A stretch of DNA of 64,000 nt from Blasia pusilla (lineage: Eukaryota): positions 12,338,001-12,402,000 of the forward strand of contig CM114271.1 of the NCBI GenBank assembly GCA_050084515.1, read 5' to 3'. Both the position numbers and the translations under genes were made by a program. The notes beneath the pieces are model-generated. The model had not been told where the DNA came from, did not search any database, and worked only from the letters and a program-made list of their open reading frames with translations. Of the stretch, positions 15,183 to 63,500 are shown piece after piece (the first letter of the stretch is position 1; every line of letters starts with the position of its first letter).

Positions 15183-17251
15183 GAGTCTGGCTCACCTTGA
15201 TGGCCATCTCCAATACCGTGGTTGACGTTGACCCCCTACAAGTTGGCATAGGATTTGTCTCTCCAACTCCTTGCAACGTCCACGCACCTGCCCCACCTGT
15301 GGGCACCGCTGGTCAGGGCGCCATCGATGGTGTGTGTAGTGCCTCTCATAATGTAAAGGACTGTGGAACCTTGACTTTTTGCCCATCGGTCCTCTCTTGT
15401 GGGTCTATCTCCACCTCATCTCTCAATGACTCGGTCACCCTCGCAATACCCCGGGTCACCATTACAACAGCCTCTACCTAAGCCACACTGCATATGAAAC
15501 CAAGGCCAGAGAAATCCCCGGCTCTATCGTAATATGATGTGGAGGTGCCACCTGATGTAGATTCTCTTGGGTCCATCTCCATCCCTGGCTGCGTCATTGA
15601 CATGCTTGCAATCATATGCTCTAATTGGTGGATGCACGAGAGAAGCGCCATCTCTGTTGTCCACACTCCATCTCCTCCGCCAACTGGTGGACTTTGACCA
15701 CCGCGACCAAAAACTCCACGACTTGCCCCAAGAGAATCATCCCTAGGCTCTTGGCCTACCTTTGGTCGTGCATGCCTATTGGTGAAGATTGAAACAACTA
15801 TCTCTTGTGTGACCATATCGATGGCAATAATCACACTATAATTGTAGTGGGACCATCCAAGATGGCTCTTAAGCAATCGAAGCCATCCTTGGCCCTCTAC
15901 CATGTTGAGGAAAGTCCCTCTGCCTATGGGGCCCACCACACATCCAATAGGCCATCGTGGATCCTTGTTGGGCAACATAGGTCGCTACGGGTTGTTTCCT
16001 CATCGATTCCCGATACCCGACCTGCTCTCTAGGCACATCGGCATGCTCCCATGGTACTAGTGCACGTTGGGGCACGTGTGGGGTTATTGTCACTCACAGA
16101 CCCGTCGACTATGAGGAAAAACCTATGGTCACCACCTCCTCCTCACTCATGTTAAGCTTAATCTGCTCAAGCAACTCAAAGATCACCTTCAATGTGGGCT
16201 TCGCCAAGTGAAGCAACATCGCATCTCGCACTCTTCTCCGTAGTTCTAGGTCCACAACTACTTATCAATACTAGACCGACTGTGCCTTAGTCACTCGATA
16301 GGTTGCAAAGATCAGTCTCCATAGGCGCATGAATGCCTCCCTCAAACTCTCACCCGATCGTCACTAAAAATCTTGCAGACTCGTCAGCTTGTCGGTTTGC
16401 ATGCCATGGTAGCTTCTCCCCAACTGTCAGAAGAACTCCATTGTAGGACTGAAATTGGGTGGCCCTCTACCACCAGAGGTCTTTGCCACCTCACCACGTA
16501 CCCTCACTATCATCCTCTCCATCTAGTCCCTGCCTTGATAGTGTGGGTTTCTCCATCCTCACTATCCCATCATATGCCTCACGGGCACTAGTGGATACAT
16601 ACCCTCGAGCCCAATACATCCTCCAGGCATCAATTTCAGCTGAGTGTGGCCATTAGAACTCCATGTAATCATCCATCAGAGGACCCTCCAAGTGCTGGAA
16701 CAAACCCTTCCATGCCATAAAAGGGTTCAACCTTGTAGGGGCCCGTATCTCCTAAAAGCCGCACCATGTGTTGAACTCCTGGATGAATTCTTCTAAGTCG
16801 ATGGTGCCCACCAAACTTTGGAAATGACGCATGACTCGATGGCCCATATCGTCCATCTCTTGCCAAGTGACATTGTCCCTTACTACAATCTCGTCACCAG
16901 ACCCCCTATCTAGTGATGACGATCCAACTACTCGAAACCCCTCGGTATCTCACTCCATTCCGTGACACACCATCACCCTTGCTCAAACTACCCCGTTCTT
17001 CCCAACTCTGGTAGAACGCCTTGATGATAACCCCATCTCACCCACTCAAGCACTCACACTCATCGACAGTCTCCCGCACTCCTCACTAGGTCATATATGC
17101 TTATGATAATCTCATGAAGATACACCCGGCCTCACGCACACTCATCACTCTACTCAAGGACGGGTTAACATCCGTGCCCATACTAATGAGACCTATTAGG
17201 GGGCATCCTTTCTAGTTGCATACAAATTGGAGTATGTTGGGGCTTGGAGCA

Positions 17252-38800: not shown

Positions 38801-40035
38801 GATCTGTACATAATTTGTCCCGAGGTCAGTCGTCGAATTCCAATGGTTCGGATTCTGGAGGAATTGGAGATGGCTTGTCGCTGTCTGGCACATCTATGTC
38901 CACTACAACAACCAGCGTGAGGGAATGTTCAGATCACACAAATCTATCGAGCACTCCGTTTCCTGTGAGGAGTGCTAGGAAAACTAGCAATTTGTTAGGG
39001 AATGTGAAGGAGTCGAGTCTACTATTGAGGAGGAAGAGTAATTCTAGATCACCAGTTCGATTTGATCACGGGAACAATTCCGAGCTAGTGGTGGTCTCTA
39101 ATTCGGACACTTTGGCGTGGAGGCAGGCCAGCAGGCAACAGAATACTCCCATGACCCCCACCACTCCATCGACGACTACCAACGGGGGCGGATTTGTGAC
39201 AGATCTGGACAGTGCAACAACTATCACAATACGTAACAGTAAGAAGGCAGTTCGAGAGCAGATGGAGGCAGCAGTTCGGGCAATCGAAGAGGCGTCGAGG
39301 CAGAAGGAGATGGCGAATAGTGCAAGAGAGCAAACACGCTCTGATATCGGGTGCGCGTGGTCCGACTTCGCTGCCGCTCGGCGAACGAAAGATCAGGCTC
39401 GTGTTGAGCGTGAGGAAGCGGAATCTGAACTGGCGCAAGCAGAGCTGTTCAAGCGAGAAGCTCGAGAGCAACTAAAGCTGGCATCGGCAGAGAAAAGTTA
39501 TGCCGAGCACACAAGAGAAAATGCCAAGAGGCAGCGGGAGCTCGCGGAGTCGGAGCTCATTTCTGCAAAGCGTGTGAGAGAGCAAGCTCAAACGGAAATT
39601 GCTAAAGCTCAAATGTTGAAAGATCAAGCTGATCGTTTCATGGACGTGGCATCTAGTCGCTTCTCGTCCATCACTTCTGTTGCTGCAGTAATCTCTAATG
39701 TTCATCCGAGTTCTGATTGTTCCACCCAACAGGTGCACAAGAGTCAACGTCCTGTCCCTCCGAGTCTAGATTTCACCTCGCACCCGCTGCCCATGCCCAA
39801 TTTCTCCTCAACGTCTTCCCCATTCCAGATTTCCACTCCTCCACGCTATTCTTCCAGCATGATTCCGGTCACATTTATCGGCACATCTGCTCTTTGTCCT
39901 CCTCCAATGTCGCTTCCTCCGTGTGCTACGGTTTGCACTATTGCAGCATCCGGGGGAAGTGCTCCCAGCTGCAGCTATTCGCCATCCATGACTGGGGAGG
40001 CTCACCTTCACACTCCTAAGTCGGAGATGATTTAG
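35834..40035 (+). CDS. SGR5-like: INDETERMINATE-domain C2H2 zinc-finger transcription factor, SGR5/IDD14-16 subgroup; exons 35834-36029, 36928-37055, 37276-37547, 38127-40035 (834 aa)
   Basis: KRKRRPAGTP|DPDAEVVALSPRTLLESDRYICDICSQGFQRDQNLQMHRRRHK|VPWKL..CPEPTCLHHDPSHALGDLVGIKKH..CEKCSKGYAVQSDYKAHLKTCGTRGHCCDCGRVFSR|VESFIEHQDTC. All introns are GT-AG and exon lengths sum to 2505 nt in frame. LQLSIG motif and EQLKLASAEKSYAE coiled coil are typical of the subgroup. The start ATG is inferred. Confidence 0.95.
36106..36255 (+). repeat. ~28-bp minisatellite (5+ units) in intron 1
   Basis: CAGTGATCGTTT(GC/TTC/GG)A(C/A)GCATTT(T/G)A(C/T)AA repeated. Confidence 0.92.
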
Positions 40036-43000: not shown

Positions 43001-44112
43001 AGCTGATCCGAAGGGTCTAAAGGGCATGCATGATTCTCGAGGCTTAATGAGTACATTCTCCTCAACAGGGTTAACGTAGACGCATCTGACTCTCCACGTC
43101 AAGATTCCTACAAGTCTGAACGGCGAAGTCTTAGGAGGTGAATTGAGTAGTTCGAGGGAGGAACCCAACCACCCAAGTTGTAAGGCCGACCGACTTCTCT
43201 GGAGATTAAAAGGGGAAGGGTTCAACGGGGGGAGTCAAACGGACTTGGTGGGTCTTCCCCACCAAGTCCGTGCCATGCGATCTTTTGTAGTGCCAGTTTC
43301 TTTCTATCTCGGGGGAATCATTTCTCGTTTGAAAGGAGTTACTCTCGCTGCCACTACGTGATAGACTTCCACTCCACCAATTCTCGTGCCCATCTCCATT
43401 CCGTAATAAAATCTTTATATCTTCCCGATCCTCGAAATGAAATAATGGCTTAATAACCCCCTTAGGAAAATGTTGTGCCTTAAGAGGGCCATGTGAAAGA
43501 AATAACACATTACAGGCCCCTTCGGCATGGCCATGAAGAACTCAGCCACCCCATTACCTCGTGAAGGGGCCTCTCAGGGCCTCTCAATCACCAAAGGGCT
43601 CGGAGGAACTTTGTAGGTTGAAGCTGGTCGTTTCACCTTCACAATTTTCTTTTTAGTGCAAAACGCTATAGCCTTGCTGAACCTCTGTCTTATATGCAGA
43701 AACTGAAACTAGGGTCCCAATTACTTAGTAACTAAAAATTGAATGAGATGCTTTGTCTTTCTAGTTAGGTTAAATGGAGGATTGTTTGTGCAAGTTATGC
43801 AATTTTTGAAGTAGGAGAAGCCTCTGCATAAATTGAAGGAGATGATTACAAGGAATGGATATCAGATGAACCTTTTGATGGACCGATGGCATGATTCTTC
43901 AAATGGGTCACTCCCAAGCTATTATCTGACTAAGTCATAGAGTGGGAACGATAATTCCTACACACAGTAAGAGACCTAGATTACAATCCTACAATTGTTC
44001 AAAGTATAATGTGGAATAGATGAGGGAGAATTGAATGTAATTGCGAGTCTGTCAACCTAATATAATTGGCCCATAGAGGAAAATGCAACCTCATATAATC
44101 ATATTTATCCCA

Positions 44113-45941
44113 TGTTGGGCGGATACACATCGCTACACAACATACATCGTTGTAACCGAACACACACACAAACACGCACGATCCCATGCTAACTCATGGC
44201 ATCCAAACAACGAGACAAGAAGTACTAAAATATCTCTAATAAATCAAGATCCAATCTCTGTCAATACCATAGGTCTCAAATGTGTGCACTCTCTCTCTCA
44301 ATGTCAAACCAAACCCACTCTCCTAATGAGAGGCTAGGGTTACACACACAAGGCAAGCAAGACCATAGTTCCGTCGCCTCATGCCAAGAGGTTCAACAAA
44401 GAGAGAATGAGCTCTCGAACTCTCTCTCATTGAGGTATACCCCTCCCCTCTCCCAAGCTCTCTCCATGGTAACCTATGCTCCCAAGTCATCTCCTTGGCT
44501 CTTGACCTGATGTAGGAGGTCAAGGGCCACTTACCAAAAATAAAAAGGCGACCATATACTCAAAATAATACTTACCTAAAATAGTAAGTTCATGAATATG
44601 GCTCTAAATGAGCTGAAACGAAGGGGAAACCTACTCTCTCAGGTTTCCCGCGGCCTCAACAAGTCATCCTCGACCTCCTGAGCCTTTCCTTCTCTACTCG
44701 CGTAGGCACTCTACTCGATCTCACCGATTTAACCTAAAAGGTGTGAAAGATGTCGTGCGCATACACACTGCTACACAATATACATCGTTATCACCACAAA
44801 CAAACAATCACGATCCCATGCTAACTCATGGCATCCAAACAACGAGACAACAAGTACCAAAGTATCTCCAATCGCTCCCCTAGCTGGTGGTTAGGTTCCT
44901 CTAACTCCAGATAGCCATCTATCCCTACCTACCATGACATACATCTCTCAGACGCTAAGAGCAAGAAGGCCCGGTGCTCATGTGGCCCCATCGTTAGTCA
45001 CCTTCTTGTCATCCATGTCATAGACACAAGTCAAAATGTAGAACTACCTACTCTATGACACATCCATCGTCCCTAAGGAACCCTAGTGAGACGTGGCGTC
45101 AAGCAAGCCATATGCCATCCTCTCGAACATACTAGCATAGTGGCTACACCACGGGCAGAACCACACAACATATATCACAAGCCTCCAAGAACTCCTGCTA
45201 AGCTCGGATCAACTGTATCGTCAATGTTCAGAAGGTGACACGGCGCAAAGTTATGCATATGGTCCTTCCAAATCATACCATTGCGTCCCTCCAATAAGAG
45301 AACACTTAATGGCAAAACCTCACGCACTCTCAAGATGGTGCGACCTGCAGTCACATCCAACGTTGTGGATGCCGTCTACTGCAAGTAGACATAGTCTCCT
45401 TGATGAAACCTTCGGAAAGTAGGTTGATAACCACCCCCGCGAATAGTCGCATACCTCAATGTATCCTGATGCTACGCAATCGCCATGTTCTCAAACGCCA
45501 TGGGCATCACTCTCCGAAACAACTTTGTACTCTAAGAACATGCTCGCATCCATACACCAGGGTCATCAAGGTGTCAACAACATCTTGACGAATAGCCGTA
45601 GGTAAATCTGGCTCACGGCCATAAAGCAACAAGTACGGTGAGAAAGACGCTAAGGATGCGTGTATGCTGAATCTGTATCCCATCGCCAACCACGGCAACT
45701 GAAGGTCCCAATCTCCTAGGTGACCTCTCTGCAAGCCATACTTACGTTGTCCTCTCTTCACCGTCTGCACAATCCACTCCGCTAGTCCATTCGTCTCAAG
45801 ATGATCTCGCGAAGTACTGCAATGGTCGATCAGTGCCTAATCACACAAGGCCTTAAACTCCCCGTGGAACTTTATACCTTGGTTTGTCAATATCTTAGGT
45901 GGTGCACTGTAATGACTTAGCACGCGATCTAGGAAGGCATA
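44113..45941 (-). mobile_element. 3' part of PHD-Gypsy: integrase core and tail, PHD (45052-45175), B-A-B (B 44751-44870 and 44113-44238)
   Basis: YAFLDRVLSHYSAPPKILTNQGIKF, TNGLAE..VQTVK, SPYLLLYGREPDLP, LLLEGRNGMIWKDH, MLCG..MLVCSRGWHMACLTP..WMCH; GCTAGGGGAG tract before B1. Confidence 0.9.
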
Positions 45942-46455
45942 TATCATGTCTTTTAAGATAGATCGGTGAGATCTAGTAGAGCGCCTTCGTGAGTAGTGGA
46001 CGACACGCTCAATAGGTCGAGGATGATGTGCTGAGGCCCCGGGAAACCTGAGAGAGCAGGTTTCCCCTTCGTTTCGGCTCATTTGGAGCCATATTGAGGA
46101 ACTTACTATTTTAGGTAAGTACCATTTTAAGTATATGATCAATTTTATATTTTTGGTAAGTGGCCTTTGACCTCCTACATCAAGTCAAGAGCCAAGGAGG
46201 TGACTTGGGAGAATAGGTTACCATGGAGAGAGCTTGGGAGAGGGGAGGGGTATACCTCAAGGAGAGCGAGCTTGAGAGCTCACTCTCTCTTTGTTGAACC
46301 TCTTGGCATGAGGCGGCGGAGCTATGGTCCCTTGCCTTGTGAGTGTAACCCGAGCCTCTCATTAGGAGAGTGGGTTTGGTTTGACATGAGAGAGAGTGCA
46401 CACCTTTGAGAGCTATGGTGTGAGATGGTGTAGAGAGAGATTGGATCTTACTTTA
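45942..46455 (+). repeat. 5' terminal A repeat
   Basis: High similarity to the reverse complement of 44239-44750 (A between two B repeats) and to 23505-23945; here it is not flanked by B on either side. Confidence 0.88.
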
Positions 46456-48227
46456 CAAAGAGAGAATGAGAGAGTGAGAGAGCCTCATGGGGGAGCTTGC
46501 TGGTTACTCGCTATTTTTGCAGGTTGGGGACGGTGTTCCCCGTTCAGCGGCTCATGGGAGTGCTCATCGGAGCAAGGGCTGCTTTGATTGTTCTTTGCAT
46601 TTTTCGTGTGGGAGAGTGGCGCGCGGAAGCGCTGCCCAATTTTTGATAGGGATTGATCATGGGGGTGGGTTGCCCCATGCCGATGCTCTTGGGAGCACCA
46701 TGTAGCTTGCTGATTTGTATTTTTACAGGTTTTACATTTTGGTTGGGAGAAATCAGCCCGGAAGCGCTGCCAAATTTTGTGTAGGAGAAAGAGACATTGG
46801 GCTTTACAATAGTCCTCGTAAGTTTTTACTGGAATGTCCAATTCCAAATATGTTTTGATTTTGTTGTAGATTGTAAAGCTGTGCACGTTATGCAATAAAT
46901 GGTGCGCAATTTGGAGTTGCGAGTAAAAAGTTATGGTCAATCTTGAAAAACTGCCATTGCTAGGCGATTTTTAGGGTTAAATTGTTCAAACCCTAAACCA
47001 GCCGCCACGCCGGCGGCGGCCGTCGTCGTCATAGTCACCGTCACCAGTCAACAGTCAACCATCACCATCGACGGTCAACTATCACGATCAATGGTCCGTC
47101 GTCATCATCAATGGTCAACCGTCACCGTCAACGGTCCACGGTCCACCGTCGCCGTTGCCTAGCGTTGCTTAGAGCTGGATTCGGCCGTTTTCCACCCTTT
47201 GGTTGCCATAGCCGCCACTACGAGTGGAGGGTCTTCAACGACCACCATTGATTCTCTCACTTGCGCCGCCGCCACATACTTTGGTGTGGCCGCCACCGTC
47301 ATCGTAGTTTCGTCATCAACCAGTGATGGTAGATGACCTCCGGTTATGGTGTTTGAGTTTTGATTTCATGCTGCTATGTTGTGATTGGTAGCCGCTCGAT
47401 GACGATCCAGTACCGTGCCGTGACGCTTGTAGCTGCAACGCACCGCCGATTTTCGCGCCGTGCCGCTCGTGGCCGCACCGCACCATCTTGATCGCGGAGC
47501 TGCACCGTCATTGTGGAGCAGAGTGTGGGTTTATTGTTGATTGAGGAGGGTATGCCGCCAAGTGCCGCATCCCACCATCGAGGGCCATGACGTTCGTAGC
47601 CGTTCCGTGCCGCTTGCACCGCCGCACCGTTCCGCAGGAACCGCACTATCCATCAAGGAGTTTTAAGCAACGTCACTACGGGAGGAGTATGACTTGTTGA
47701 TTGGAAGAGTTGTCTCCATAACCGAGTTGGGGTCGAGATTTGCAATTGCTGAGGAGCGACATCGACCTGTGTTCAGGTTACCCATTCTGGTCCTTTACCC
47801 TGCACGTGTGAGGGATTCTGGGATTTGGGTAGTTTATTTGGGGATATTGGGTGTGTGCATGCTGAGAGCATCATTTATGTATGTGGTTTAGGGGACATAG
47901 ACATGTGTGGGATATCCGTAGTTGAGGGTAGATTGTCGATGAGATGATAGCATGGTCAATTTTCCGCACCATGTCGCTTGTTGCCGCACGTTACACGTTT
48001 TGAGGAGGGAAAGTGTAGATCGAGTGTCGCATGTTTGGGATGAGTGATTAAGGGATTACTCGCGAGGTTGAGAGTGATCATGTGAGAGGGGCACAAGGGC
48101 CATCACGACGTCCTTTCAGGATTTTGAGAGGCAAGGTAATGGACCTGAGAGTAGCTCTGGAGGGTTTACCCGGAGTGGTGCGAGGTTTCGAGGGTCTCCA
48201 CGTGAGAGACCACCTCCATCTCCTTCT

Positions 48228-49629
48228 ATGTCATCTTTAGACGAGGGGGAGCGTGTAGAGGAGTTTGTGAGCACATCGCCACAGATTGTGAGTGGTCCTA
48301 CCAGTTGGGCGTATGAGATGGACGATCAGGCTAGAGGACCGCGTAGGTTTTCAGGTGCATTAGGGACGATTGAGTTGCACGATTTCATAGCAGAGTTTAG
48401 GAGTTGGTGCGACTCCAAGCGGGCCAGGAACTCTAGAGGGTTCAACCCGTTTACAACATGGAACGGTATGTTCTAGCATTTAGAGGGGGCGCCCATGGAC
48501 GATTACCACGAGTTCTCTCAGAGATATGCACGTGAGATCGAGGCGTGGAGGCTCTACTATGACCTACATTATGTGTCATGGACGGAGCCATTCCCAGATG
48601 AGGAGGAGGAGTCATGAGAGGCTACTTCCTCTTCCACTAGTGATGTTTTAGGAGGGGTAACTCGCATGGGAGTAGTTGCACCTTCTACTCGGGCTCGTCC
48701 CAGGTTCAACCGTGTGGTTGAGTTCTTTGCTGAGTTGAGGGCGAGCTACCAAGGGGTACAGACGGAGAAGTTGCGGAGCATCCACGACTTCCAGAGGCGC
48801 TCGGGTGAGAGTTTGCGTGAGGCTTACACTCGCTTGCGCGTGTTGATCAACGTCACTCAGGGGGTGACAGAGGCTCACGCTATCCAGTCATGGTACGCGA
48901 TGCTAGACCGGACCCTGCAGACACGGGTGCGGGAGGAGGTGCTTCTTATGAACACCTCCCCTACATTGAAAGATGTTTTCACGACCGCCAAGAACATTGA
49001 GCGCAATATGGCGGAGGAGAGCATAGCCACCATGGGTTCTCGGCGAGAGCAGTCACGATTGACTACACTACCTGTGCAACAACGTGGACTCTGAGATAGG
49101 TCGATTGTGGCACCACGCGCTTAGGGAGGATACCGGGAGGCCGTGCCACAGAGACCTGCCTTCATATGCGGCTCAGCAGCCGCCGCCTTCTATTACTTGT
49201 TGGTCATGTAGTGGAGCCCATCATCAGTGCGATTGCACCCGTCAGGGTTATGGACGTGTGCCTCAGCATGGAGGAGGAGATGGTGTTGCACCAGGTGGTC
49301 CTGTTGGGGGACGAGGACCTGGAGTTTCCCAACAGGGTGGTGGAGCTGCCCATGGAGGAGGTAGAGTCCTACCACCTAGACGCGTCGAGAGAGATGCCGG
49401 GCGTGAGGCTAGGATGGCTCCTCAGATACATCAGCTACAGGAGCAGATTGCCGCTATGGCATTGAGATTACCCGATGCCAGATCCGTGGCATCGACATCA
49501 TATGGAGCAGCTAGAGATATAAGGGATCCTGGTTGGATGTGCGGGGTTGCCCAAATGGAGGCAGCCGCAGTTGTGACGCATGGAGCAGCCGCAGAGCTGG
49601 ATCCACAGCAAGGGGAAGCCAGGAAATAG
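48228..49629 (+). pseudogene. gag with CCHC zinc knuckle
   Basis: RRFSGALGTIELHDFIAEFRSWC, FQRRSGESLREAYTRLR (retrotransposon gag-like), CWSCSGAHHQCDC. Confidence 0.8.
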
Positions 49630-50089
49630 ACTAGGCTTCCTTAGTCTTTCACGTTGTCCAAGACGATGAGGACCCCATCGATGGGTCTTGATCAGAGTTC
49701 CTAGAGAGTTGGTGATGTTGTTGGTGTGCAGGCACGAAGGGCAATGGGAGAAGCAAGTGCGACGACTCCTATTGTTGATGCTCAGAAGGGGCATGTATCG
49801 AGCACGTTGTTGGGGGCAACCACCATTGTGTACCGCGTTCCTTTATTTTCTGCTTCCGATGTTATGAAGTTGGGGGCTACGCCCGCCGAGGCTTTTCGGC
49901 TGGCCGCTACGCTATATGAGCGTGGAGTTGGAGTTCTTGCATCACGTTTAGAGGTGATTGTAGAGGAGGTGATGGACCTATCCTTGGAGTGGATGCTCGA
50001 GCCGTCCACGTCAGATTCATGGCAAGCTGTGGCTGCTAGGATGGCGGAGATGCCCGCTAGACCCGCGATAGAGCGTGCCATGGCTTCTC

Positions 50090-50490
50090 CTGGTGTTGTG
50101 TTGCTGGATAATCGAGAAGAGGTCTTCCAGTTGGTGAGTCCCGGAGGTAGAGCTTTTAGTCCGAAACGCGTCTTGTTGGATTCAGGAGCACAACCCCTGA
50201 TGTTGGGGAAAGCGTCATTCAGAGGATTGGACTTGACGAGAGCCAATGTGGAGCGTTGTCCATTCCGCATATAGACATCCTTGGGTGGAGCGAGTACCAC
50301 ATAATATATCACCCGACAGGAGGTCGTGGTGAGGATTCGCCCGGGACATCCTATAGATGAGTCTGTGGTGCGAGCCAAGGCGATAGTGACTGATGTAGAG
50401 TCCTATGACGTCTTGGTTGGTGGAGCAGTGTTATGACTGATGGGATTTTCCCTCGATTATTGGGAGCAATGAGCATCCTACAGACCAAGA
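50090..50490 (+). pseudogene. Retroviral-type aspartic protease
   Basis: RVLLDSGAQ (DSG at 50179-50187) and the downstream YDVLVGG motif. Confidence 0.85.
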
Positions 50491-50906
50491 TGAGAGTCAG
50501 GTGATGGGCGCCTTAGCTCATTAACCATTCGATTCACATGTGCAGTGATCGAGCAACGGCCAGGAGAGATGGCGACCTTAGCAACATTTAGTAGTGCCAT
50601 CACTTGGCCTAGTGATTTGATTGAGGGACATATCCATGTAGAGGATACTCCTGTTCCTGAAATTTCTATGGAGAGGCGTGTTATGGTAGCCGTATCATTC
50701 CGTGGATGAGAGGTGCCGTTGTGGGGCTCGATTGAGGAGCTTCGACGATTGGCAGATGAGCACGTGCAAACCGCACGGAGCGAGGCGTTTGCACCAGAGC
50801 ATGACGGGTCTGAGGAACCCGAGGTAGTAGGGAGTGCTATGATGACACCCTTTGATACCACACTCATTGTGTGGTGTACCCCCTTTGATACCACACCCAT
50901 GAGGGT

Positions 50907-52845
50907 ATTCGAGTTTTAGATCTCTTTGGAGGGATTAGCACCGGGTTAGCAGTTGTTTTGCAGGCAAGAGTGCGAGTATAAGAGTACCTGTATGTGGAGA
51001 GTGATGATGTTGCAAGGCGCATCTCACTACAACATGTGGTGCAGTTACCCCTACATTTTCCCGACTTATTGTCTGTGTCCACGGTACAGGGATACCAGAG
51101 TTCCTTACCGAGGGATATTTCATTGTTGGGGGCGCAGGACTTAGAGCCGGTAGGAACCATTGATTTGGTCATTTCTGGTTGGCCATGTCAGGGCCAATAC
51201 TGGGCTCACTACCTACTAGTTCACGGAGAAGATGGTGCAAGAGAAGGACTACCAAGAAGTCTTGATGAGCGATACTAAAGCCTTATGTCTGTCTGCACAC
51301 TTTTCTTCATCTGAACTTTCACCATATAAAACTTTGCTTTCGAAGTACCTAGATGTGTTTGCCTGCACCATGGAGGAGATGAAAGGAGTACCAAAACAAT
51401 ATGGGGAGCATAGAATTGATCTCAAGTCTGAGGCAATCCCTGTGCGAATGATGCGGTATAGATTGAATCCAAAGTATTCCTTAATGGTCAAAGATGAAAT
51501 TGATCAGAGGTTGGAATCAAGAGTCATTTATCCGATATTGAGTAGTGAGTGGGTATCCCCCAAAGTCATTGTTCTTGTGCTTCATCCTCTAGACTGGACG
51601 AAGAAATTCCACGTGTATATAGACATCTCTTCATTTGCTATTGGTGTAGTACTCAATAAATTAGATGAGAAAAAGAAGGATTATATACCCTATCTATTCT
51701 GCAGGTCGGCAACTCTCGGTGGCGGAGCAGAAGTACACTACTACGGAGAGGGAGGCCTTGGAAATGGTCTTTGCCTGCAAGAAGTTCCGGCATTACTTTC
51801 TGGGGTACCCATTTATTTTTCATGTCGACCATTTTGCGCTTTGTGCCTTGGTGGTCAAAGCGGATTTCTCACGCAGGATTGCCCAGTGGATAATGCGGAT
51901 TTCTTATCAGGGTTGAGGACGCCCAAGGTCAACCTCACGAAGACCCTGTAAGATGATTTTTCGGACGAGGAGATGTTCCTTATAAGCAAAGAGACCTTGA
52001 GAAGATCTTCATACGAGGACATTTTGCAGTTCCTCGTCACTTTTAGATTGCCAACCCTTATGACAGAAAAAGAGCGGGTAGTGTTTTTACATAAGGTACG
52101 GCCTTATGAGCTGTGCTAGGAGGTATTATTCAAGCTTGGCACAGATGAAGAATACCGGAGATGCTTGGAGAAGGAGGAAGTACCCCAAGTGTTGGACAAG
52201 GCAGCGGGTTGGATGATACTCGGTCCAGGTTGCTTTGGGAGATGTTGAGGGTCTTACAGCAGTTACAAGAGCACCAGTCTCGTTCTCCAACCTACATTCT
52301 GGAGAATATGCCCATCTTAGGAGACTCCAGGTCACGGGTGGTGATGAGTGCTCATCAGGTGTGTGCCTAGATCGGCCCAACACTGTTCTTGGATGCGGCG
52401 AGTGTAGGTTCTAGAGCCCATCGCCCGTGTCTATGGTGGACCAACTTGGTTTCCCATGCGGTGTTACGGAGGGCGTATGCGAGAGTGGAGCGCCCCTCCC
52501 ATTTGTTGGTGGATCCCATTATGGAGCCAAGTCGTTGATCACACGCAGTGAGGAACGATGATCAACCACCGTTGACTGTGGTCAATAGGGTAGGCAGGCT
52601 ATGGGCAGCCTTTCCCACGTTTATGAGTTTTCGTGCTTCCTACGCATACAAGGAGGCCAGTCCTAGCTTGGTTTGGGATGACCAGGTTCAGAGGTTGGTG
52701 GAGCCCAACGCCAACGAGAGAGAGCGGGCGATGGGATTTCCCCCAGAAGTGACGGCAGTCTCGTCAGTATCAGAGGCATCACGACGCCATGTCTTGGGTC
52801 AGGCGATGGACTTGAACTCCTTGACATGGATCTTCAGCTTGGGAG
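50907..52845 (+). pseudogene. DNMT3-like C5 cytosine methyltransferase domain, copy 1, split by an insertion at 51198-52184
   Basis: Motif I IRVLDLFGGISTG; motif IV IDLVISGWPCQG; GL..RSRLLWE; motif VI YILENM; motif VIII DAASVGSRAHRPCLWWTNL; motif IX ERERAMGFP..T; motif X RRHVLGQAM. Confidence 0.92.
51198..52184 (+). mobile_element. LTR-less, internally deleted pol fragment of a different Gypsy lineage
   Basis: EHRIDLK..YRLNP..SEWVSP (RT N-terminus) joined to FHVYIDISSFAIG, AEQKYTTTEREAL (RNase H) and LFKLGTDEEYRRCLEKEEV (pre-integrase); absent from the paralogous MTase at ~58300. Confidence 0.85.
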
Positions 52846-53299
52846 TGGCTGAGCAGTGTCGGATGAGATCGCGACAGATCACAACGGTTGCGTTGGTGAG
52901 CCCCATGCCTACCAAGATGGTGGAGGCAGTGGCTGGGGGCGATACCCGAGGAGATCAACATACCAAGGTAGATCGGGAGAGACACCCTTGGACTTCTTGG
53001 GATGTTTTGCAGGTACGCCAGGAGATGATAGCCACAACATCGAGCGTGGTTCTGGGCACTGCATGTGGAGGAGATCAGAGTTTGCACTTGGCTGCAGGAG
53101 AGTGGTCGAGTGTTGTTGTTTGAGATGGGGTTGCACCATAGCAACCACTCATATCCACGCCGGAGAGTCCTACCGTAGTCACGATGGAAAGTTGGGAGCT
53201 AGATATGGGCCCTTTGTTGATAGGAGGAGAGTTGCGTCGAATACATCAGTTCCTCAAGAGTTATAGGAGCCGCTTTGCATTTAGCATGGAGGATTTGGG

Positions 53300-54539
53300 T
53301 ACGCTGAAGGGACTAGGGATCCGCATTGAGTTGTCGAGTGATACGTCGATCTTCCGATGACCCTACAAGTACAGTGATATGGAGAGGGCTTTGATTCAGA
53401 GTAGGAGCCACGACTTGGTTGGAGCAGGATTAGTGGGGATGTCGCATTGGAGTATGCATCTGCCACTGTCATGCCCGCCAAGAAGGATGTGCATGGCAAC
53501 TAGACGGATAGGCGGATGTGTGGTGATTACCGACCTATCAATCGGCAGACGAAGTCCAATAGGCATGCCATGCCCACCCCTGAGGAGATCTTTGATGCTT
53601 TTGGTCATGCAAAGGTTTTCAGTTCATTGGATTTGCGAGCCGAATACCATCAGCTGCCTATCAGATTGGAGGACAGGCAGAAGATGACATTTTGGGGCAT
53701 CGATCCTCACGGGAGGGATTGTTTGTACAAGTGGCGGTTCTTACCATTTGGGTTAAAGAACGCCCCGGCTGAGTTTTAGAGGGTCATGGATAGGATCTTG
53801 GCTGGTCTGGATTTTGCTAGGTGTTATATTGATGACATCGTAGTCTTTAGCACCACGGTTGAGGAGCATGAGCGACATCTAGAGGAGGTATTTTGACAAT
53901 TGCAATTACATGGGCTGAAGCTACATCCAGGCAAGTGCAAGTTCTTCTACGACCAGATTGAGTACTTGGGTAATACAATATACCTAGGGGGCCTTGGTGT
54001 TCAGCAGACAAAGGTAGAGGCTATCTCACGCATTCCACGCCCTACAGATGTGAGTCGTGTTCGCGCATTCATGGGATTGGCGAACTTCTATCGGCGGTAT
54101 GTCAAGGGATTCAGTTCGATTGCAAAGCCGCTGACCTTGCTGAACAAGGTGGATCACGAGTGGCACTAGGGGGATGAGCAAGAGCAAGCATTTCAGTTGC
54201 TCAAGGATAGGGCCCATCTTGAGGAGACCAATTAGGGGACTTCCTTTCCAGTTACACACAGATTGGAGCATGTTGGGGCTTGGAGCGGTGCTTACCCAGT
54301 ATGATGATGAGGGTAGAGAGTTCGTGGTGGCTTACGCTAGCCACTCAAACAATGCTGCAGAGGCGAAGTATAGCTCGTATGAGCATGAGTGCTTGGCTGC
54401 GGTGTGGGCTGTCGCGTATTTCAGGTGTTACTTATTCGGCAATCCCTTTACCATCATCATTGATCATCAACCACTGAAGTGGTTGATGGAGTCCAACAAG
54501 CTTACAGGAAAGCTTGCGAGATTGGCTCTGTTGTTGCAG
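53300..54539 (+). pseudogene. Gypsy reverse transcriptase and RNase H
   Basis: RMCGDYRPIN, FSSLDLRAEYHQ, LPFGLKNAP, YIDD (53825-53836), KCKF, FMGLANFYRRYV, FQLHTDWS..GLGAVL, YSSYEHECLA, DHQPL. Confidence 0.95.
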
Positions 54540-54594
54540 GGATCTTGGAAGATTGGCGTGTCACTCGATAACTCAATGCGGATCCCTAGACCCT

Positions 54595-57182
54595 TGTGAT
54601 ACCCGCAATTTTGTACTTTTGAAGATTTAGAGTTTTTTATTCGAAGAAAACTTGTGTATACATAATGATTTTGGATATTGTGGTTGTGTACTAGAAGAAT
54701 GAGTAATACTGAAAGAGATCACGAAGCTCCTAGGACAAGGCAGAGAGGTGGAAGATCAAGGATTTGCCTTAGAGGAGAGAGAAATGCAGTAACGAAGTCT
54801 AAAGACTCGGAGCGAAGCTTGAAAAATCAATGAAGCCCTATTGAGAACTTGTTCATGAAGTGCTTCGCTCTTGAACGAAGCATAAAGACGAAGAGGAAGA
54901 AGTACTTGGCTCTTCAGTGAAGCACAAAGCACTTGAAACCAGAGCGAAGAATGGAGCGCTTCGTCTTCAGATCAGGAGAAAGAGATTTGTCCTCAAGTGA
55001 AGCAAAAGAGGTCTAGACTTCGCAGCGAAGCAAAGCTAAGACTCGAAGTGATTTCAAGAGGCATACTGATAGAACAGTTAGACTAGGAAGAGGCGCAACT
55101 TTTGGTATCAGATAGGAAGTTAATACAGTTACGATTAGCGGATTCACAGGGATCATAGGAAAAGAAACCACCATAGATCTAGGTAGTTACAATTGTTGAA
55201 GAAATACCAGATTCCTCAAGAACGCTTCGAATCCTTAGAACCACTCCTACTTCGGAGAATATTTAAGAAGCATGAAAGTAGCTATCATCATTATTCTTTC
55301 ACAAAGTCCTTATGCTGTAGGAATGGTCCGAGCAAGGGAGTAGTACCCTCTCACGCTTGTATACACTTTTGAAGCTTTCTCATTCTTGATGGAGTAGTAA
55401 AGTACTCGTTTCTTCATTCTGATGTGCGATGCATATGTCTGAGTATTCTCATTGGGTCTGTAGAGTGAAGAGTGAATCAAGAGAAGCTTTTCATCAATAG
55501 AATAATCAGCACAGAGTTGTAAGAAATTTGTTCGACAGAGAGTAGCTTGCCTAGACGGATTGAGTTTTGAAAGTAGGAGAAGACAACTTCTTGTTGAGGT
55601 CTTTGTGAGGTTCTTTGATGCTGAGTGAAGATCTACCTAAGCGTGATTTCAACTCCACTAGAGAGAATAGAGGAAAGAAATATTGGTACTAAGAGAGATC
55701 TGAAGAAATTGATAAGTCATTAAATCTGAATTATATACACTTAATTACAACTAGTGCAAGATAAACAACATCTTGACCTCTCTTTCCACATGTGATACCC
55801 ACAATTTTGTACTTTTGAAGAAATACATCTTTTTATTCAATGAAGACTTGTATATATATTATGATTTTGATTATTATATATTATTATGGAGAGGAATGAG
55901 TAAAATTAAAGTGAATCATGAAATTCCAAGGACAAGGTAGAGAGATAGAGAATCAAGGATTTGCCTAAGAGGAGAGGAGAATAAAATAACGAAGTCTAAA
56001 GACCCAGCAAGAAGCTTCGGAAGGACAACAAAGCTCTGTTAAGCTCTGATAAGCTCTGTCTATGAAGTGCTTAGCTCCTAAACGAAGCATAACGAAGCAT
56101 GAAGAAGAAGAAGAAGAAGAAGAAGAGAAAGAAGTACTTCGCTCTTGAACGAAGCTCGAAGAACGAAGCACCTAGAACAAGAACAAAGAATAGAGCACTT
56201 CTTCTTTAGATCAGGAGAAAGAGCTTCGTCCTCAAGCAAAGCAAAAGTGGTCCAGACTTAGCAGTGAAGTTAAGCTAAGATTGACAGTGATTTCAAGCGA
56301 CACATAGTTAGAACAGTTAGAATAGGAAAAGGCGCAACTCTTTGTATAAGATAGGTAGTTAAGACAATTTTGTTTTGTGGATTCATAGGGATCTTAGGAA
56401 AAGAGAGGAGCACCGTAGATCTAGGTAGTTACAAATGTTGAAGAGACACCAGCTTCATCAAGAACGCTTTGAATCTTTGGATCACTCCTACTTTAGAGAG
56501 TATTTAAGAAGCATAGAAGTAGCTATCATCATCATTCTCTTACGGAGTCCTCATGCTGTAGGAATGGTCCGAGCAAGGGAGTAGTATCCTCTCGAGCTTG
56601 TATACACTTTTGAAGCTTTCTCATTCTTGATGGAGTAGTAAAGCTGTCATTCATTCTTTCTGATGTGCGATGCTTATGTTTGAGTATTCTTTTTGGGTCT
56701 GTAGAGTGAAGAGTGAATCAGGCGAACCTTTCTCATCAATGGAATAATCAACATAGAGTTGTAGGAAATTTGTTTCATAGAGAGTAGCTTGTCGAGAATG
56801 ATTGAGTTTCGAAAGTAGGAGAAGCCAGCTTTCATGTTGAGGTCTCTGTGAGGTTTCTTGATATCGAGAGGAAATCTACCTGAGCGTGCTATCAACTCCA
56901 CTAGAGAGAATTGAGAAAAGAAACCTTGGTACTAAGAAAGATCCGAAGATATTGATAAGACATTGAATATAAATCATACACATTTAAATACAACTATTAC
57001 AATAGAATTGTAATTTTGAACTCTCTTTTCATCAAACAATGATCCTCTTGGGGATCGAACTCAGTAAACGATTATAAAATTGAAACTCTTATACATTACA
57101 CCATATAATCATGATCCTCTTGGGAATCGAACTCACTAAATTAATGTAAAAAGATCAATTCTTATACTTCTTGTACATTACA
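54595..57182. mobile_element. Tandem pair of LTR-like units (54595-55790 and 55791-57182) with a 5-bp TSD
   Basis: Both units start TGTGATACCC and end in CA, and are colinear over ~1.15 kb; ACCCT is duplicated at 54590-54594 and 57183-57187; no coding capacity seen. Confidence 0.88.
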
Positions 57183-57636
57183 ACCCTTCAGCGTACCCAA
57201 ATCATGCATTCTAAATACAAAACAACTCCTATAACTCCTAAGGAACTCGTGTACGCGGCGTCGCTCTCCTCCTATCAACGTAGGGCCCATATCTGGCTCC
57301 CAAGCCTCCATCGGGATTATGGTAGGACTCTCCGGCGTGGGTTTTTGTGGTTGCTATGGTGCAATCCCCTCTCGGACAACAAAACTTGACTGCTCCCCTG
57401 CAGTCAACTACAAAATTGGATCTCCATATGCAGTACCCGGAACCACGCTTGATGCTATGGCTACCATCTCCTAGCGTACCTGCAAAACATCCCAAGAAGC
57501 CCAAGGGTATCTCTCTCGATCACCTTTGGTGTGTCGATCTCCTCGGGTCTCGCCCCCAGTTACTGCCTCAACCGTCTTGGTAGGCATGGGGCTCACCAAA
57601 CGCAACTCTTGTGATCTGTCGCATCCTCAAATGACG

Positions 57637-58599
57637 CTACTCAGCTACTCCTAAGGTGAAAATCCATGTCAAGCAATTCAAGTCCATCGCCTGGCCAAAG
57701 ACATGACATTGTGATGCCTTTGATAGTGACGGTACTGCTGTCACTCCTGTGGGGAATCCCATCGCTCGCTCTCGCTCATCAACATTGGGCTCCACCAACC
57801 TCTGTACATGGTCATCCCAAACCAAGCTAAGTCCGGCCTCCTTGAATGTATAGGAAGCGGGAAAACTCACCAATGTGGGAAAGGCTACCCGTGGCATGGC
57901 AATCTTGTTGACCACAGTCAACGACTTTTGATCAGCGTGCCTCACTGCTTGTGATCGACCGCCCGGATCCAATATAGAATCCACCAACAAATCGGAAGGG
58001 CGCTCCACTCTTGCATATGCCCTCCGCAACACCTCGTGTGGTACCAAGTTGATACACCAAAGACACGGACAATGTGCTCGTGAATCCACACTTGCCGCAT
58101 CCAACAAAACTGTGGGGCCAATCCATGCGCGCATCTGATGTGCACTCGTCACCACATGGGACCTTGAATAGCCCAAAATCGGTATATTCTCCAGAATGTA
58201 TGTTGGAGGACGAGACTGATGCTCTTGGAAGTGTTGCAAGATCCGTATCATCTCCCAAAACAAGCTGGACCGAGAGTCGGCTAATCCGCTACCCCGTCTA
58301 GCACTTGACTCGCTCTGACATGGCCAACCAGCAATGACCAAGTCTATGGTCCCTACTCGCTCCAAGTCCTGCGCCCCCAACAATGAAATGCCCCTCAATA
58401 GGGAACTTTGGTAACCTTGGATGGCAGACGTACACAACAAGTCGGGAAAGCGAATGCATAACTATGCCACATGATGAAGTGAAGCACACCTCGCAACATC
58501 ATCAATCTCCACATAGAGGTACTGCTGCACATGTACTCTTGTTTGCAAAATAGCAGCTAACCTTGTGTTGATCCCTCCAAAGAGATCCAACACCCGAAT
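57637..58599 (-). pseudogene. DNMT3-like C5 cytosine methyltransferase domain, copy 2 (no large insertion)
   Basis: IRVLDLFGGINT, IDLVIAGWPCQ, GLADSRSSLFWE, YILENI, DAASVDSRAHCPCLWCINL, ERERAMGFPTGVT, HVFGQAMD; one stop near 58462, then a 267-codon open stretch. Confidence 0.93.
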
Positions 58600-60557
58600 A
58601 CCCTCCTCTAGGATGTGCCACATAATGGGTGTGGTGTCCAAGGGCGTCATCATAGCACTCTTGACTACCTTGGGTTCCTCTGATCCGTAACATTCTAGTG
58701 CAAACGTCTTACTCCACGCGGTTTGCACATGCTCAATGGCTAAGCGTCGAAGCTCCTCAGTCAAGCCCGAAAGCGGGTCCTCTCCTCCACGGACGCATGC
58801 GGCAACCATGACACTCCTCTCCATAGAAATATGAGGAACGGGCATATCCTCTCAAATCAAGTTCCTCAATCAAATCACTAGGCCAAGAGATGGCGTTACT
58901 AAATGTTGCTAAGGTCACCATCTCTCCTGGCCGTCGCTCAATCACTCCACATGTGAATCGAATGGTTAATGAGCTAAGGCGCCCATCACCTGACTCCCAT
59001 CTTGGTCTGTAGGATGCTCATTGCTCCCAATAATCCAGGGAAAATCCCATCGGGTATAACATTGCTCCACCAACCAAGACGTCATAAGACTCTCCATCAA
59101 TCACTATCGCCTTGGCTCGCACCACGGACTCATATGTAGGGTGTCCTAGGCAAATCCTCACCATGACCTCTTGTCGGGTGATATACTGGGTGGTACTCGT
59201 TCCATCCAAGGATGTCTATATCCAAAATGGACAACGCTCCACATCGGCTCTTGTCAAGCCCAATCCTTTGAATGACGCTTTCCCCAACATCAAGGGTTGC
59301 GCTCTTGAATCCAACAAGACGCGTTGTGGACTAAAAGCTCTACCTTCTGGACTCACCAACTCGAAGACCTCTCCCCGGTTATCTAGCAACACAACACGAA
59401 GAGAAGCCATTGCACGCTCTATCGCGGGTCTAGCCGGCATCTCCTAGCAACTGCAGCCTGCCATGAATCCGATGTGGACGGTCCGAGCATCCAATCCGAG
59501 GGCAGGTCCATCATCTCCTCTGCAATCACCATTGAACGTGATGCAGGAACTTCAACTCCACGCTCACATAGCGTAGTGGCCAGCCAAAAAACCTCGGCGG
59601 GTGTACCTCCAAAAGTCATAACATCAGAAGCAAAAAATAAAGGAGCGCGGTACACAACAATGGCCATCCCCAACAATATGCTCGACACATGCCCCTCCTG
59701 AGCATCAGCAATAGGAGTCGTTGCACTCGCTTCTCCCATCGCCCTTTGTGTCTGCATACCAACAACATCACCAACTCTACGCGAACTCTGATCAGGACCC
59801 ATCAATGGGGTCTTCATTGCCTCGGACGATGTGAAAGACTGAGGAAGCGTGGTCTGTTTCCCAGCTTCCCTTTGATGTGGATCTAACTCTACGATTGCTC
59901 CATGCGTCACAAGTGCGGAGGCCTCCATCTGGGCAACCCCGCACATCCAACCAGGATCCTCCATATCTCTAGCTGCTCCATATGATGTCGATGCCACGGA
60001 TCCGACATCAGGTAATCTCAATGCCATAGTGGAAATCTGCTCATGTAGTTGTTGTATTTGAGTAGCCATCCCAGCCTCACGTTTGGCGTCTCCCACAACG
60101 CGTCTAGGTGGTGGGACTCTACCTCCTACACGAGTAGCCCCACCATCCTGTCGGGCAACTCCAACTCCTCGTCCCCCAACAGGACCACTTGGTGGATGTG
60201 CGGGCCAAACACCCAAACCAGCAACTTGCTGTGGTGCCCTCTAGCCCTCGGTCCAAACGTAACTCAGGGTGTAAATTGAAACACCTAGCGCATGTGTGAC
60301 CATACCTCTAAAAATAGTCCCAATGACAACCTCCTGGTGCAGCACCATCTCCTCCTCCATGCTGAGGCACACGTCTAGGACCTTGACGAGTGCAATCGCA
60401 CTGATGATGGGCTCCACCACATGACCAACAAGAAATCGTAGGCGGCTGCTGCTGAGCCGCATATGAAGGTGCAGGTTTCTATGGCATGGCCTCCCAGTAT
60501 CCTCCGTGTGTTGGCGGTGCCACAATTAACCTATCTCGGAGTCCACGTTGTTGCACT

Positions 60558-63500
60558 AAGGAGCGTTTCTTGTTGGCCAATAAGCAATGATCTCCTCCCA
60601 AAAGTCAAGGATGAATCCTAGGGGATATAATATTGTACTCCCCACCAACACATCGTATGACTCAGTTGGTGTCGTAATTGCACGTGTGCGCACCATAGCA
60701 CTATCCGTTGCATGCTCTGGCTGGACTCTGACAACTATCTCCTATCGAGTCATATAGTGCGTGGGTGACACGCTCCCAATCGAGGTCTGTATTTGGAAGG
60801 GACAAGGCTCAATGTCAGCCTTCCGTAACCCCAAAGCTAAACAAGCCGCCTTCCCTAACATCAAGGGCTGCGCTCCCGAATCAAGTAGGACACGTTGTGG
60901 GTGGTATGTTGTCCTCATCGGACTAACCAAGCGAAATACTCCAGCTCCGTTATCTAGTTACACTTCTCCAAGCATCACCACTGCTCACTTCATGGCCGGT
61001 CGAGCTAGCATATCTACCAACTTCGTTGCCGCCGCGTGCCATGACCTTGTGGGGAACGTCCCGAGCAATGGCTCTGAGGGCAAGTCCACCACCTCCTCAA
61101 CTACCTCTGAACAAGAAGCAGTCACCTCTCCACGCTCACACAACGTGGCGGCCAGCCGGAACATCTCAGCTGGTCCAACTCCCAACGTCGCCAACTCTAT
61201 GGCAGAAAATAGCAAGTCTAACTTACTCTTGTGGCCTCCAACACTATGGTCGACACTGATTCCACTCGAGCCGGCATAGGATTTGTCACTCCAACTCCTT
61301 GTGATGTCGACGTACATGCCTGAGTTGTAGGCACCGCTGGTCGTCGAGGCACCATCGATGGTATGTGTAGTGCCTCCAAAAATGTGAATGACTGTGAAAC
61401 CTTGGCCCACTGCCCATCGGTCCCCTTCGATGGGTCAATCTCAACTCCACCGCTCGATGGCTCGGTGCCTCTTGCAGCACCCCGAGTCACCACTACAACT
61501 GCCTCAACCTGAGTTGCACTACACATAAACCCCATACTAGCAAGATCCTCACCTGGGTCAGGGTAAGAGGTAGAAGCTAGAGCCACACTAGCTGCTCGCG
61601 ACTCCGTGCCTTCCCTAAGCTGCATCATCGTCATGGCAGCAATCCTCTGCTCCAACTGATCGATGTGTGAGAGAAGTGCCGACTCTGGTGCTCCTGCTCT
61701 ATCTCCTCTGGCCGGTGGTGGTCCTCTACCACCACGTGCAGGAAGAACTCCCCGATCTCCTTGAAGACGATCGCCCCCAAGCCCTTGGCCTACCTCTAGA
61801 AGTGCCTCTCGACGAAGCTCAAAACATCTATCCCTAGTGTGAACATATCTGTGGCAATAGTCACACTAGTACTGTGGTGGGGCCATCCTCTATGGCTCCT
61901 CAGCAATCGGAAGCGCTCGTGGTCCTCTCCCATGTTGTAAGCACTCTCTGCCTACGGGCCCCTCCACACGTCCAACAAGACAACATCGGTCCCTACTGGG
62001 CAACATATGTAGGTACGAGTACCCAGCCTGCTCTCTGGTCACACTTGTCCGCTCACGTGGTACCGGTGCTCGCTGTGGCACCTGTGGGATCACCTTCACT
62101 CGTGGACCCATCGATTCTTGAGAAAATCCAGCGGTCACTACCTGCTCCTCACTCATGTTGAGCTCAATACGCTCAAACAACTCAAAGACCACCTTCAATA
62201 TGGGCTTCGCTATGTGAATCAACACCGCATCTCGGACTCTCCTCCGTAGTTCTCAATCTAGAACCCCATAATAATACTGGACTAACTGCGCCTCAGTCAC
62301 TCCATACGTAGCAATGATCAGCCTCCTCATGCGTGTGAATGCCTCTCTCAGACTCTCATCCGATTGTCGCTGAAAATCCTGTAGACTCTTAAGCTTGTCG
62401 GTGCGTACGCCTTGGTAGCTCTTCCCCAACTATCGGAAGAACTCCATTGTGGGGCTGAAGCAGGATGGCCCTCTACCACCAGAGGTTTCTGCCACATCGC
62501 TTGTCTCACTGCCCTCCTCTCCATCTAGTCTCCGGGCTGATGGTGTGGGTCTCTCTCCTCTCATGATCTCATCATATGCCTTGCGACCACTAGTGGACAC
62601 ATACCATGGAGCCCAATTCATCCTCGAGGCATCAATCTCTACTAAATATAGTGATCAAAACTCCATGTAGTCATCCATCGAAGGAAGCTCCAAGTGTTGG
62701 GTTGAACCGTGTCGGGGTCTGTATCTCCTGGAAGTCGCAACACGTGTCGAACTCCTAGATAAAATCATTTAAGTCAATGGTGCCCATTGCACCCGAGAAA
62801 CGACGCATGCCTTGATGGCCCATGTCGTCCATCTCCTGCCAAGTGATACTGCCTCCATCTGCAATCTTGTCACCAGACCCAGTGTCTAGTGATGACGATC
62901 CAACCATGGATGGATGTTGAGGCAGCTCCTCACTTGTAACCCCTCGGTATCTCAGTCCACTCCGTGTCACACCACTACTACTGCTCGCACTATCCTGTTC
63001 TTCCAAACCCTGGAAGAACGATGTGATGACAACCTTGTCTTACTTGCTCAAGCATTGAGACTCACCGAGAGTCTCCCACACTCCTCATTAGCTCACCTAT
63101 GCTAACGTCAATTCTGTGACGACACACCCAACCTCACGCACACTCAACACTTGGGCTCACCATGAGCCTCCCACTAACTCACCTAACCTACCAACACGCT
63201 CGGGTCATACATACAACCCCTACTTGGCAACCGCCGCATATCCACCAACATGCTACACATCAAAAGAGTCTACACTCGTCACCATCACTGCACCCACCTA
63301 GCACAAGATTCTACTTGATACCCAGCACTCTCAATCACAGAAGATAAGTGCGAGAAAAGGGACTCGAATGGGTAACTTGATCATGCCCTCCAACCTACGC
63401 ATCGTCAACACTCACTCCTCCATGTGGCACGGCAACCTCTGCAACATGATACTCTCCTCGACCAACACGTCAAACCTCCCATCAATAGATGCAGCCTACC

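Follow-up and report, generated by a model that had tools for sequence, protein, structure and literature searches.

The stretch of Blasia pusilla DNA analysed here (assembly GCA_050084515.1, contig CM114271.1, positions 12,338,001 to 12,402,000 of the forward strand; 64,000 nucleotides, hereafter the window) carries the broken remains of two copies of a Ty3/Gypsy retrotransposon, each with a putative cytosine methyltransferase (DNMT) domain in its pol region. A sequence-only reading of the window had proposed that this domain is DNMT3-like and lies between the protease (PR) and the reverse transcriptase (RT). The region is a nest of broken copies of long terminal repeat (LTR) retrotransposons in transposon-rich eukaryotic surroundings, and in a blastn self-comparison of the window one element turned up in two inverted copies, 49074-53311 (+) and 60556-57184 (-).

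Two inverted copies and their methyltransferase domain

The copy on the plus strand (the plus copy) reads gag, PR, DNMT, RT and RNase H (RH) colinearly with polyproteins of Marchantia; the integrase (INT) is missing from this truncated copy. Its features, with the relatives designated by P numbers, are the following:

48318-49629, +: gag-like region (tblastn, colinear with residues ~4-330 of Marchantia P0100/P0101)
49762-50640, +: aspartic protease region, DSG at ~50179-50187 (aligns to the protease of P0103, P0115 and P0113)
50641-51198, +: N-terminal half of the DNMT, motif I to PCQ, with three stops and one frame change (tblastn with the minus-copy protein)
51199-52185, +: 987-bp insert splitting the DNMT (gap in the alignment of the two copies; weak RT_RNaseH matches)
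52186-52853, +: C-terminal half of the DNMT, motifs VI, VIII, IX and X, with two stops (tblastn, 70% identity to the minus copy)
53426-54539, +: reverse transcriptase and RNase H (PF00078, PF17917; tblastn to P0103 and P0134)

The copy on the opposite strand (the minus copy) comprises:

57184-57636, -: linker from DNMT to RT (81-88% identical to 52854-53311 of the plus copy)
57637-58851, -: DNMT domain of 405 codons, interrupted by a single TAG at 58462-58464 and closed by a stop (PF00145, translation)
58865-59440, -: protease region (DSR) with two stops (translation; 91% DNA identity to the plus copy)
59443-60556, -: 3' part of gag, the copy starting mid-gag at 60556 (blastn to 49074-50041 of the plus copy; tblastn)

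The DNMT of the plus copy is heavily damaged, with five in-frame stops, one frame change and the 987-bp insert (~51199-52185) right after the PCQ. Its alignment to the minus-copy protein is broken into three segments, located at 50641-50874, 50880-51206 and 52179-52853 and showing 68-71% identity, and none of its three open reading frame (ORF) pieces matched Pfam singly; the gag-like piece of the same copy, taken alone, likewise had no Pfam match. The ORF at 49705-50274 in its protease region reads VLLDSGAQPLMLG. The insert codes for the start of a Gypsy RT fused straight to an RNase H fragment, i.e., the internally deleted pol of another Gypsy element.

In both copies the DNMT follows the protease, as had been proposed. 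The minus copy ends at 57184, short of the RT core, so that the position before RT, also proposed for both, is directly visible in the plus copy only. The DNMT motifs I, IV, VI, VIII, IX and X stand in linear order, and the catalytic PCQ is present in both copies. In the register of the family alignment, the minus copy reads LFGGI, WPCQS, ENIP, AHCPCLWC, ERERAMGF and GQAMD. The claim of a full motif series in each copy holds for order and PCQ, but motif VIII is decayed in the minus copy (AHCPCLWC versus AHRPRxWW in the family), as are several codons in the plus copy.

The methyltransferase assignment starts from the 274-aa ORF of the minus copy, which scores 43.7 bits (E 3.1e-11) with the Pfam DNA_methylase model PF00145, well above its cut-off of 22. 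When all PDB chains were searched with a profile built from 19 family sequences, 57 matched, the best being DNMT3A (70.6 bits, E 1e-18), with which the unpermuted domain is colinear through motifs I-VIII and IX-X. DNMT3B/C followed at 61-62 bits, whereas plant DRM reached 41.8 bits through motifs I-VI only, at the permuted C-terminal place of DRM. HaeIII/HhaI scored ~25 bits and DNMT2 ~22 bits, and no DNMT1 or CMT chain was among the 57 matches. An AlphaFold2 model of the relative P0001 (mean pLDDT 66, pTM 0.74; poor in the target-recognition region) gave, with Foldseek, top 50 PDB matches that were all DNMT3A/B/C (E from 6.6e-13, TM ~0.72 on target). Both window copies thus encode a C5 cytosine methyltransferase domain, which by profile ranking and modelled fold is DNMT3-like, unlike the permuted DRM, as the first reading had supposed.

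These scores also bear on the nature of the substrate. The domain could act in the manner of DNMT2 on RNA, either the element transcript or a tRNA primer, instead of on DNA. Such a role was raised by de Mendoza et al. (PMC5890265) for the LINE-borne DNMT of the dinoflagellate Symbiodinium, which failed to methylate DNA in yeast, and a domain carried in the particle would sit beside RNA. Nevertheless, the match to DNMT2 is weak next to that of DNMT3A, and the DIRS-borne DNMT3 of Symbiodinium is stated to methylate CG sites de novo (PMC5890265). We consider RNA methylation improbable.

Relatives, selection and copies in the host

The minus-copy protein matches 96 proteins of like length and 28 longer ones, with a best identity of 58-62%. 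Named relatives come from Marchantia polymorpha, Calypogeia fissa, Riccia sorocarpa (whose membership rests on a DNMT-like match only) and Sphagnum species. The most complete is P0134, encoded on an 8.3-kb contig as a single 2240-aa protein with PR at residues 625-713, DNMT at 928-1001, RT at 1327-1486, RNase H at 1551-1680 and INT at 1809-1975. Pfam also recognized DNMT-RT-RNase H in P0103 of Marchantia, PR-DNMT in P0115, P0113 and P0116, and CCHC...DNMT in P0120. The DNMT3-type domain thus lies inside a Gypsy Pol ORF in P0134 and P0103, and the window order gag-PR-DNMT-RT-RH is colinear with Marchantia P0100 and P0103. The order PR, RT, RH in the plus copy, with INT after RH in P0134, is that of Ty3/Gypsy elements and bears out the original classification. 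The P0100 cluster of Marchantia groups 18 proteins that are at least 90% identical; those listed map to chromosomes 1, 2, 4, 5 and V and include six with a length of 1278-1281 aa.

A full HMMER scan with a 15-sequence profile extended the family to 436 cluster representatives (50% identity) at E <= 1e-30. Among the best 150 of these, 85 have RT/RNase H before the DNMT and/or an integrase(-PHD) after it, 6 show PR-DNMT or DNMT-RT, and 59 consist of the DNMT alone. Two architectures emerge. The named hosts of PR-DNMT-RT elements are the bryophytes Marchantia, Calypogeia, Riccia and Sphagnum, together with three strains of Closterium (Zygnematophyceae); those of RH-DNMT-INT elements are the chlorophytes Scenedesmus sp. 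PABB004 (labelled 'pol') and Hariotina reticulata. In the latter class (P0229, P0165, P0156, P0124, P0370 and others), the DNMT stands between RNase H and integrase, and a PHD finger lies at the C terminus.

The two classes separate in an unrooted tree of element-borne domains (IQ-TREE quick, LG+G4) built from 81 of 281 domains: all 10 PR-DNMT-RT, the window, 22 short bryophyte-type, every fourth RH-DNMT-INT and every sixth of the rest, with 200 left out. A branch with SH-aLRT support of 99 divides all 40 RH-DNMT-INT and 3 unknown domains from all 10 PR-DNMT-RT domains, the window and 27 unknown ones. The window groups with sequences from Calypogeia and Marchantia and with Sphagnum-like ones in a clade of 14 members (support 100), a position that makes a bryophyte the most likely host, and the Closterium sequences, which share the domain order of the window family, fall on the PR-DNMT-RT side. 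The PR-DNMT-RT family is very probably a streptophyte lineage that includes Closterium, liverworts and Sphagnum. Homology and profile searches, including one with the DNMT part of P0124, turned up no named Klebsormidium protein; the P0124 search returned unnamed contigs and EukProt entries only.

The DNMT evolved under purifying selection. Comparison of the two window copies gives it a dN/dS of 0.25 (0.19-0.33 by bootstrap; dS 0.61; 397 codons, 7 skipped), a value that includes the neutral decay since both copies died, while wrong-frame controls gave 0.75 and 1.47. The corresponding ratio is 0.40 for the protease region and 0.73 for the end of gag. DNA identity between the copies is 85-93% across gag-protease, where most differences are transitions, and falls to 76-81% where the DNMT begins, many differences from there on being transversions. 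This step reflects either a recombinant ancestry or conversion of gag-protease between the inverted neighbors; whichever the cause, most DNMT divergence accumulated while the DNMT was under selection.

One whole-genome shotgun run and three RNA-seq runs bearing the host species label were mapped to the window at a likeness of at least 90%. The DNMT has a DNA depth of 373-608 in the plus copy and 60-109 in the minus copy, compared with 3.2 for the 987-bp insert. On the assumption that this insert occurs only once, the host holds ~115-190 copies similar to the plus-copy DNMT and 19-34 similar to the minus-copy DNMT; the family is about 100-fold repeated. The insert itself is near single-copy in the host reads. 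As 355 DNA reads, along with 17 RNA reads, join 51198 to 52188 directly, most copies of the element lack the insert. Beyond the end of the plus copy at ~54540, 630 host DNA reads continue into sequence absent from the window.

The family is transcribed in the host. RNA depth over the plus copy, in the three RNA-seq runs, is 8-28 in the DNMT and 54-68 in RT. Pairs with the first mate on the minus strand are about ten-fold more numerous over the plus copy, and the ratio is reversed over the minus copy. Provided that the libraries were made by the usual dUTP protocol, this RNA results from sense transcription.

Such findings decide against a purely local accident, in which a fragment of a host DNMT3 would have undergone a single capture or nesting event here, followed by duplication, without ever having belonged to a transposing unit. 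The situation of the copies, 4 kb apart, inverted and both broken, is what such an accident could leave behind. However, the same gag-PR-DNMT-RT order recurs in Marchantia, Closterium and unnamed contigs, the family counts hundreds of clusters at the threshold given above and is repeated about 100-fold in the host DNA, and the two copies have diverged in the DNMT at the dS and dN/dS just reported. Local capture with duplication was rejected on the grounds of the relatives' shared order, host depth and dN/dS, as was the nesting of an unrelated element, and we give the accident scenario almost no credence. That the DNMT domain belonged to the transposing unit, as first proposed, is supported by the colinearity with Marchantia, the single protein P0134, the selection on the domain and its host copy number. 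The findings that would have spoken against it, namely the lack of a match to the methylase model, a domain confined to this locus and a dN/dS near 1, are all excluded.

Neighboring elements in the window

Several other fragments surround or interrupt the two copies:

54528-54595, -: 68-bp continuation of the minus copy past an LTR-like insertion (inverted repeat of 53307-53374, 82%)
54596-57183, +: insertion into the minus copy, foreign to the element, made of two tandem 1.2-kb TG...CA units and 150 bp
60574-62832, -: third gag-protease fragment, from the same superfamily but more distant (tblastn to residues 1-741 of P0100)
45232-45953, -: C-terminal integrase piece from a member of the family (tblastn to residues 1930-2163 of P0134, 44-48%)

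The 68-bp piece (54595-54528), which the end of the plus copy at ~54540 adjoins, continues the minus copy, and 37 host DNA reads link 54589 to 57183, thereby skipping the 2.6-kb insertion. The tandem units of this insertion (54595-55790 and 55791-57031) are AT-rich and 79% alike. Both begin TGTGATACCC and end CA, without an internal region between them, and look like the two LTRs of another element inserted into the minus copy. The third gag-protease fragment shows 65% DNA identity to the protease region of the minus copy and stops short of the expected place of a DNMT. Assignment of the integrase fragment to the plus or the minus copy is uncertain.

A candidate LTR is a ~500-bp repeat found in inverted copies at 45950-46455 (+) and 44740-44240 (-), 87% alike. 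Its surroundings (44100-46655) have the top DNA depth (~1860) and the top RNA depth (up to ~107) of the stretch, and many reads join both arms of the repeat on opposite strands. Farther away, a related element at 12759-17149 (-) has a gag 72% identical to 61236-63151 and an RNase H-integrase part, with only ~480 bp in place of protease, DNMT and RT, and is thus an internally deleted copy. The longest open frame of the window (38101-40035, +; 644 aa) has no Pfam match at E <= 0.01. Pieces of a CACTA/En-Spm transposase (Transposase_21, DUF4218) lie at 1903-4500 (-), with one in-frame stop between two ORFs.

Possible function and known systems

Taken together, the window very probably holds two decayed, head-to-head copies of a Ty3/Gypsy family whose gag-pol polyprotein includes a DNMT3-like domain between protease and RT, of the kind described as KnitGypsy-Dnmt3 in the charophyte alga Klebsormidium nitens (de Mendoza et al., 2018; PMC5890265). 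Several points weigh against this reading. Neither window copy is a working gene, though both retain the catalytic PCQ, and a search for the LTR ends of the plus copy by sequence comparison within the window gave no clear result. Only 5-10 of ~2,500 RNA reads per run are at least 99% like the window locus; the RNA therefore comes from other copies, and the locus itself is at most barely transcribed. All 80 metagenome loci examined, which were excluded from the selection tests, are decayed, the longest ORF through the DNMT being 467 aa. The Marchantia relatives are known as gene models and P0134 as a protein record. The placement of the domain in the DNMT3 clade is suggested by similarity ranking and fold, the tree being composed of element-borne domains only, and its methylation activity is a prediction from sequence. 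Finally, the proline of the catalytic Pro-Cys is a glutamate in 6 of the 10 PR-DNMT-RT and 64 of the 157 RH-DNMT-INT domains.

This last substitution, along with the low-confidence target-recognition region of the P0001 model, could point to a module that does not methylate at all but serves, like DNMT3L, for binding or as a scaffold, recruiting or titrating the host DNMT3 or steering integration. Replacement of Pro by Glu with the Cys kept in motif IV is in itself unusual among C5 methyltransferases. DNMT3L-like proteins have lost the catalytic residues. In the 281 family domains (157 RH-DNMT-INT, 10 PR-DNMT-RT and 114 others), by contrast, there is hardly any variation at the motif I glycines, the catalytic Cys, the ENV Glu or the two motif VIII Arg. 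In these three groups, respectively, the catalytic Cys is found in 157/157, 9/10 and 103/114 (with gaps in 9/114). For the ENV Glu the counts are 157/157, 10/10 and 112/114, and the first two groups retain both motif VIII Arg in 156/157 and 10/10 domains. A non-methylating module is accordingly an outside chance, barely better than that of RNA methylation.

If the DNMT3-like domain of the Gypsy polyprotein is active on DNA, its position suggests a mode of action. The domain lies in the pol frame of intact relatives and is transcribed with the element in the host. It would be translated as part of Gag-Pol and packaged in the particle beside RT, where it could carry out de novo methylation of either the freshly made double-stranded cDNA or the integration site, such that new copies would arrive pre-marked. 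The idea was put forward for the DIRS-borne enzyme (PMC5890265), and we hold this sequence of steps to be plausible for the Gypsy family, with somewhat less than even confidence. Instead of acting in cis on its own cDNA, the enzyme could work in trans, its targets being rival transposons or the genome of the host; it might, for example, shut down competitors or modify the silencing exerted by the host. Given the high copy number and the transcription of the family, the host cell could hold appreciable amounts of enzyme, and no sequence feature ties the activity to cDNA. Conversely, the location of the domain inside Gag-Pol next to RT favors packaging, and Pfam detected no nuclear-targeting or chromatin-reader domain in the PR-DNMT-RT class, unlike the chlorophyte class with its PHD finger. 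Action in trans is unlikely, yet it is the likeliest of the alternatives considered here.

A broader and more tentative view is that bryophytes, including M. polymorpha, carry a still-active, ancient streptophyte Gypsy lineage that writes 5-methylcytosine with its own DNMT3-type enzyme, the same module standing elsewhere in pol in a large chlorophyte sister group. If so, part of the methylation of bryophyte transposons would be laid down by the transposons themselves, and the module, rather than having been captured specifically in Klebsormidium, would have entered green plants once, long ago, and later changed its place in pol. What transposon-borne cytosine methyltransferases do is a question that dates from 2018 and arose in organisms not easily manipulated. 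Their occurrence in bryophytes, as many long and nearly identical gene models in Marchantia and, in the present host, as a repeated family whose RNA is strand-specific, makes this question accessible in tractable plants, in which retrotransposition reporters, methylome sequencing and genome editing are routine. The finding also bears on the distribution and loss of DNMT3 in land plants. Transposon copies, some of them labelled 'DNA (cytosine-5-)-methyltransferase' in UniRef, are moreover counted among the DNMTs of bryophyte gene sets.

The kind of element is already published for Klebsormidium, as the sequence-only reading had stated, and the novelty is therefore a taxonomic extension. Within the literature searched, with subscription journals and supplements outside the search, the extension of Gypsy-DNMT3 elements to mosses and liverworts and the sister architecture of chlorophytes are new. 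No description of a Gypsy-DNMT3 element in a land plant was found there, including in passages of PMC6453930 and PMC5784723, in keeping with the initial impression, and none of the chlorophyte RT-RH-DNMT-INT-PHD elements. In the passages of PMC12344493 (2025) and 10.64898/2026.05.21.726589 (2026) that treat the subject, element-borne DNMT3 is cited for 'streptophytes' and dinoflagellates only, via de Mendoza et al.

Comparison with known systems places the window family closest to KnitGypsy-Dnmt3, a likeness drawn from the published description and not from sequence (PMC5890265). Both are LTR Gypsy elements of streptophyte hosts with an unpermuted Dnmt3-type domain in the Pol polyprotein, key residues conserved and signs of purifying selection (Ka/Ks < 0.2 as described for KnitGypsy-Dnmt3, 0.25 for the window family). 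They differ in that KnitGypsy-Dnmt3 is reported in few copies in a charophyte alga, whereas the window family numbers ~100 copies and has its closest relatives in liverworts and mosses. The chlorophyte elements share a homologous DNMT (220-410 bits with the same profile), a Gypsy backbone and the catalytic residues, but carry the DNMT between RNase H and integrase, possess a PHD finger and stand on the opposite side of the strongly supported branch. SymbioDIRS-Dnmt3 and SymbioLINE-Dnmt of Symbiodinium are likewise retrotransposon-borne cytosine methyltransferases, the former being of Dnmt3 type and inside the Pol ORF with two domain orders (PMC5890265). They reside on DIRS and LINE backbones (with a tyrosine recombinase or an endonuclease) in dinoflagellate hosts, and their DNMTs were inferred by the authors to be independent acquisitions (PMC5890265). 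The EpiLTRs of Cymbomonas and Euglena are also LTR retrotransposons with a cytosine methyltransferase, but their domain is described as sister to DNMT4, at the 3' end of pol, and accompanied by an adenine methyltransferase and a chromodomain (10.64898/2026.05.21.726589). On the cellular side, PpDNMT3b, reported to methylate CG and CHH sites de novo, has the same unpermuted DNMT3-type catalytic domain, but it is encoded by a multi-exon host gene outside any polyprotein (Yaari et al., 2019; PMC6453930).

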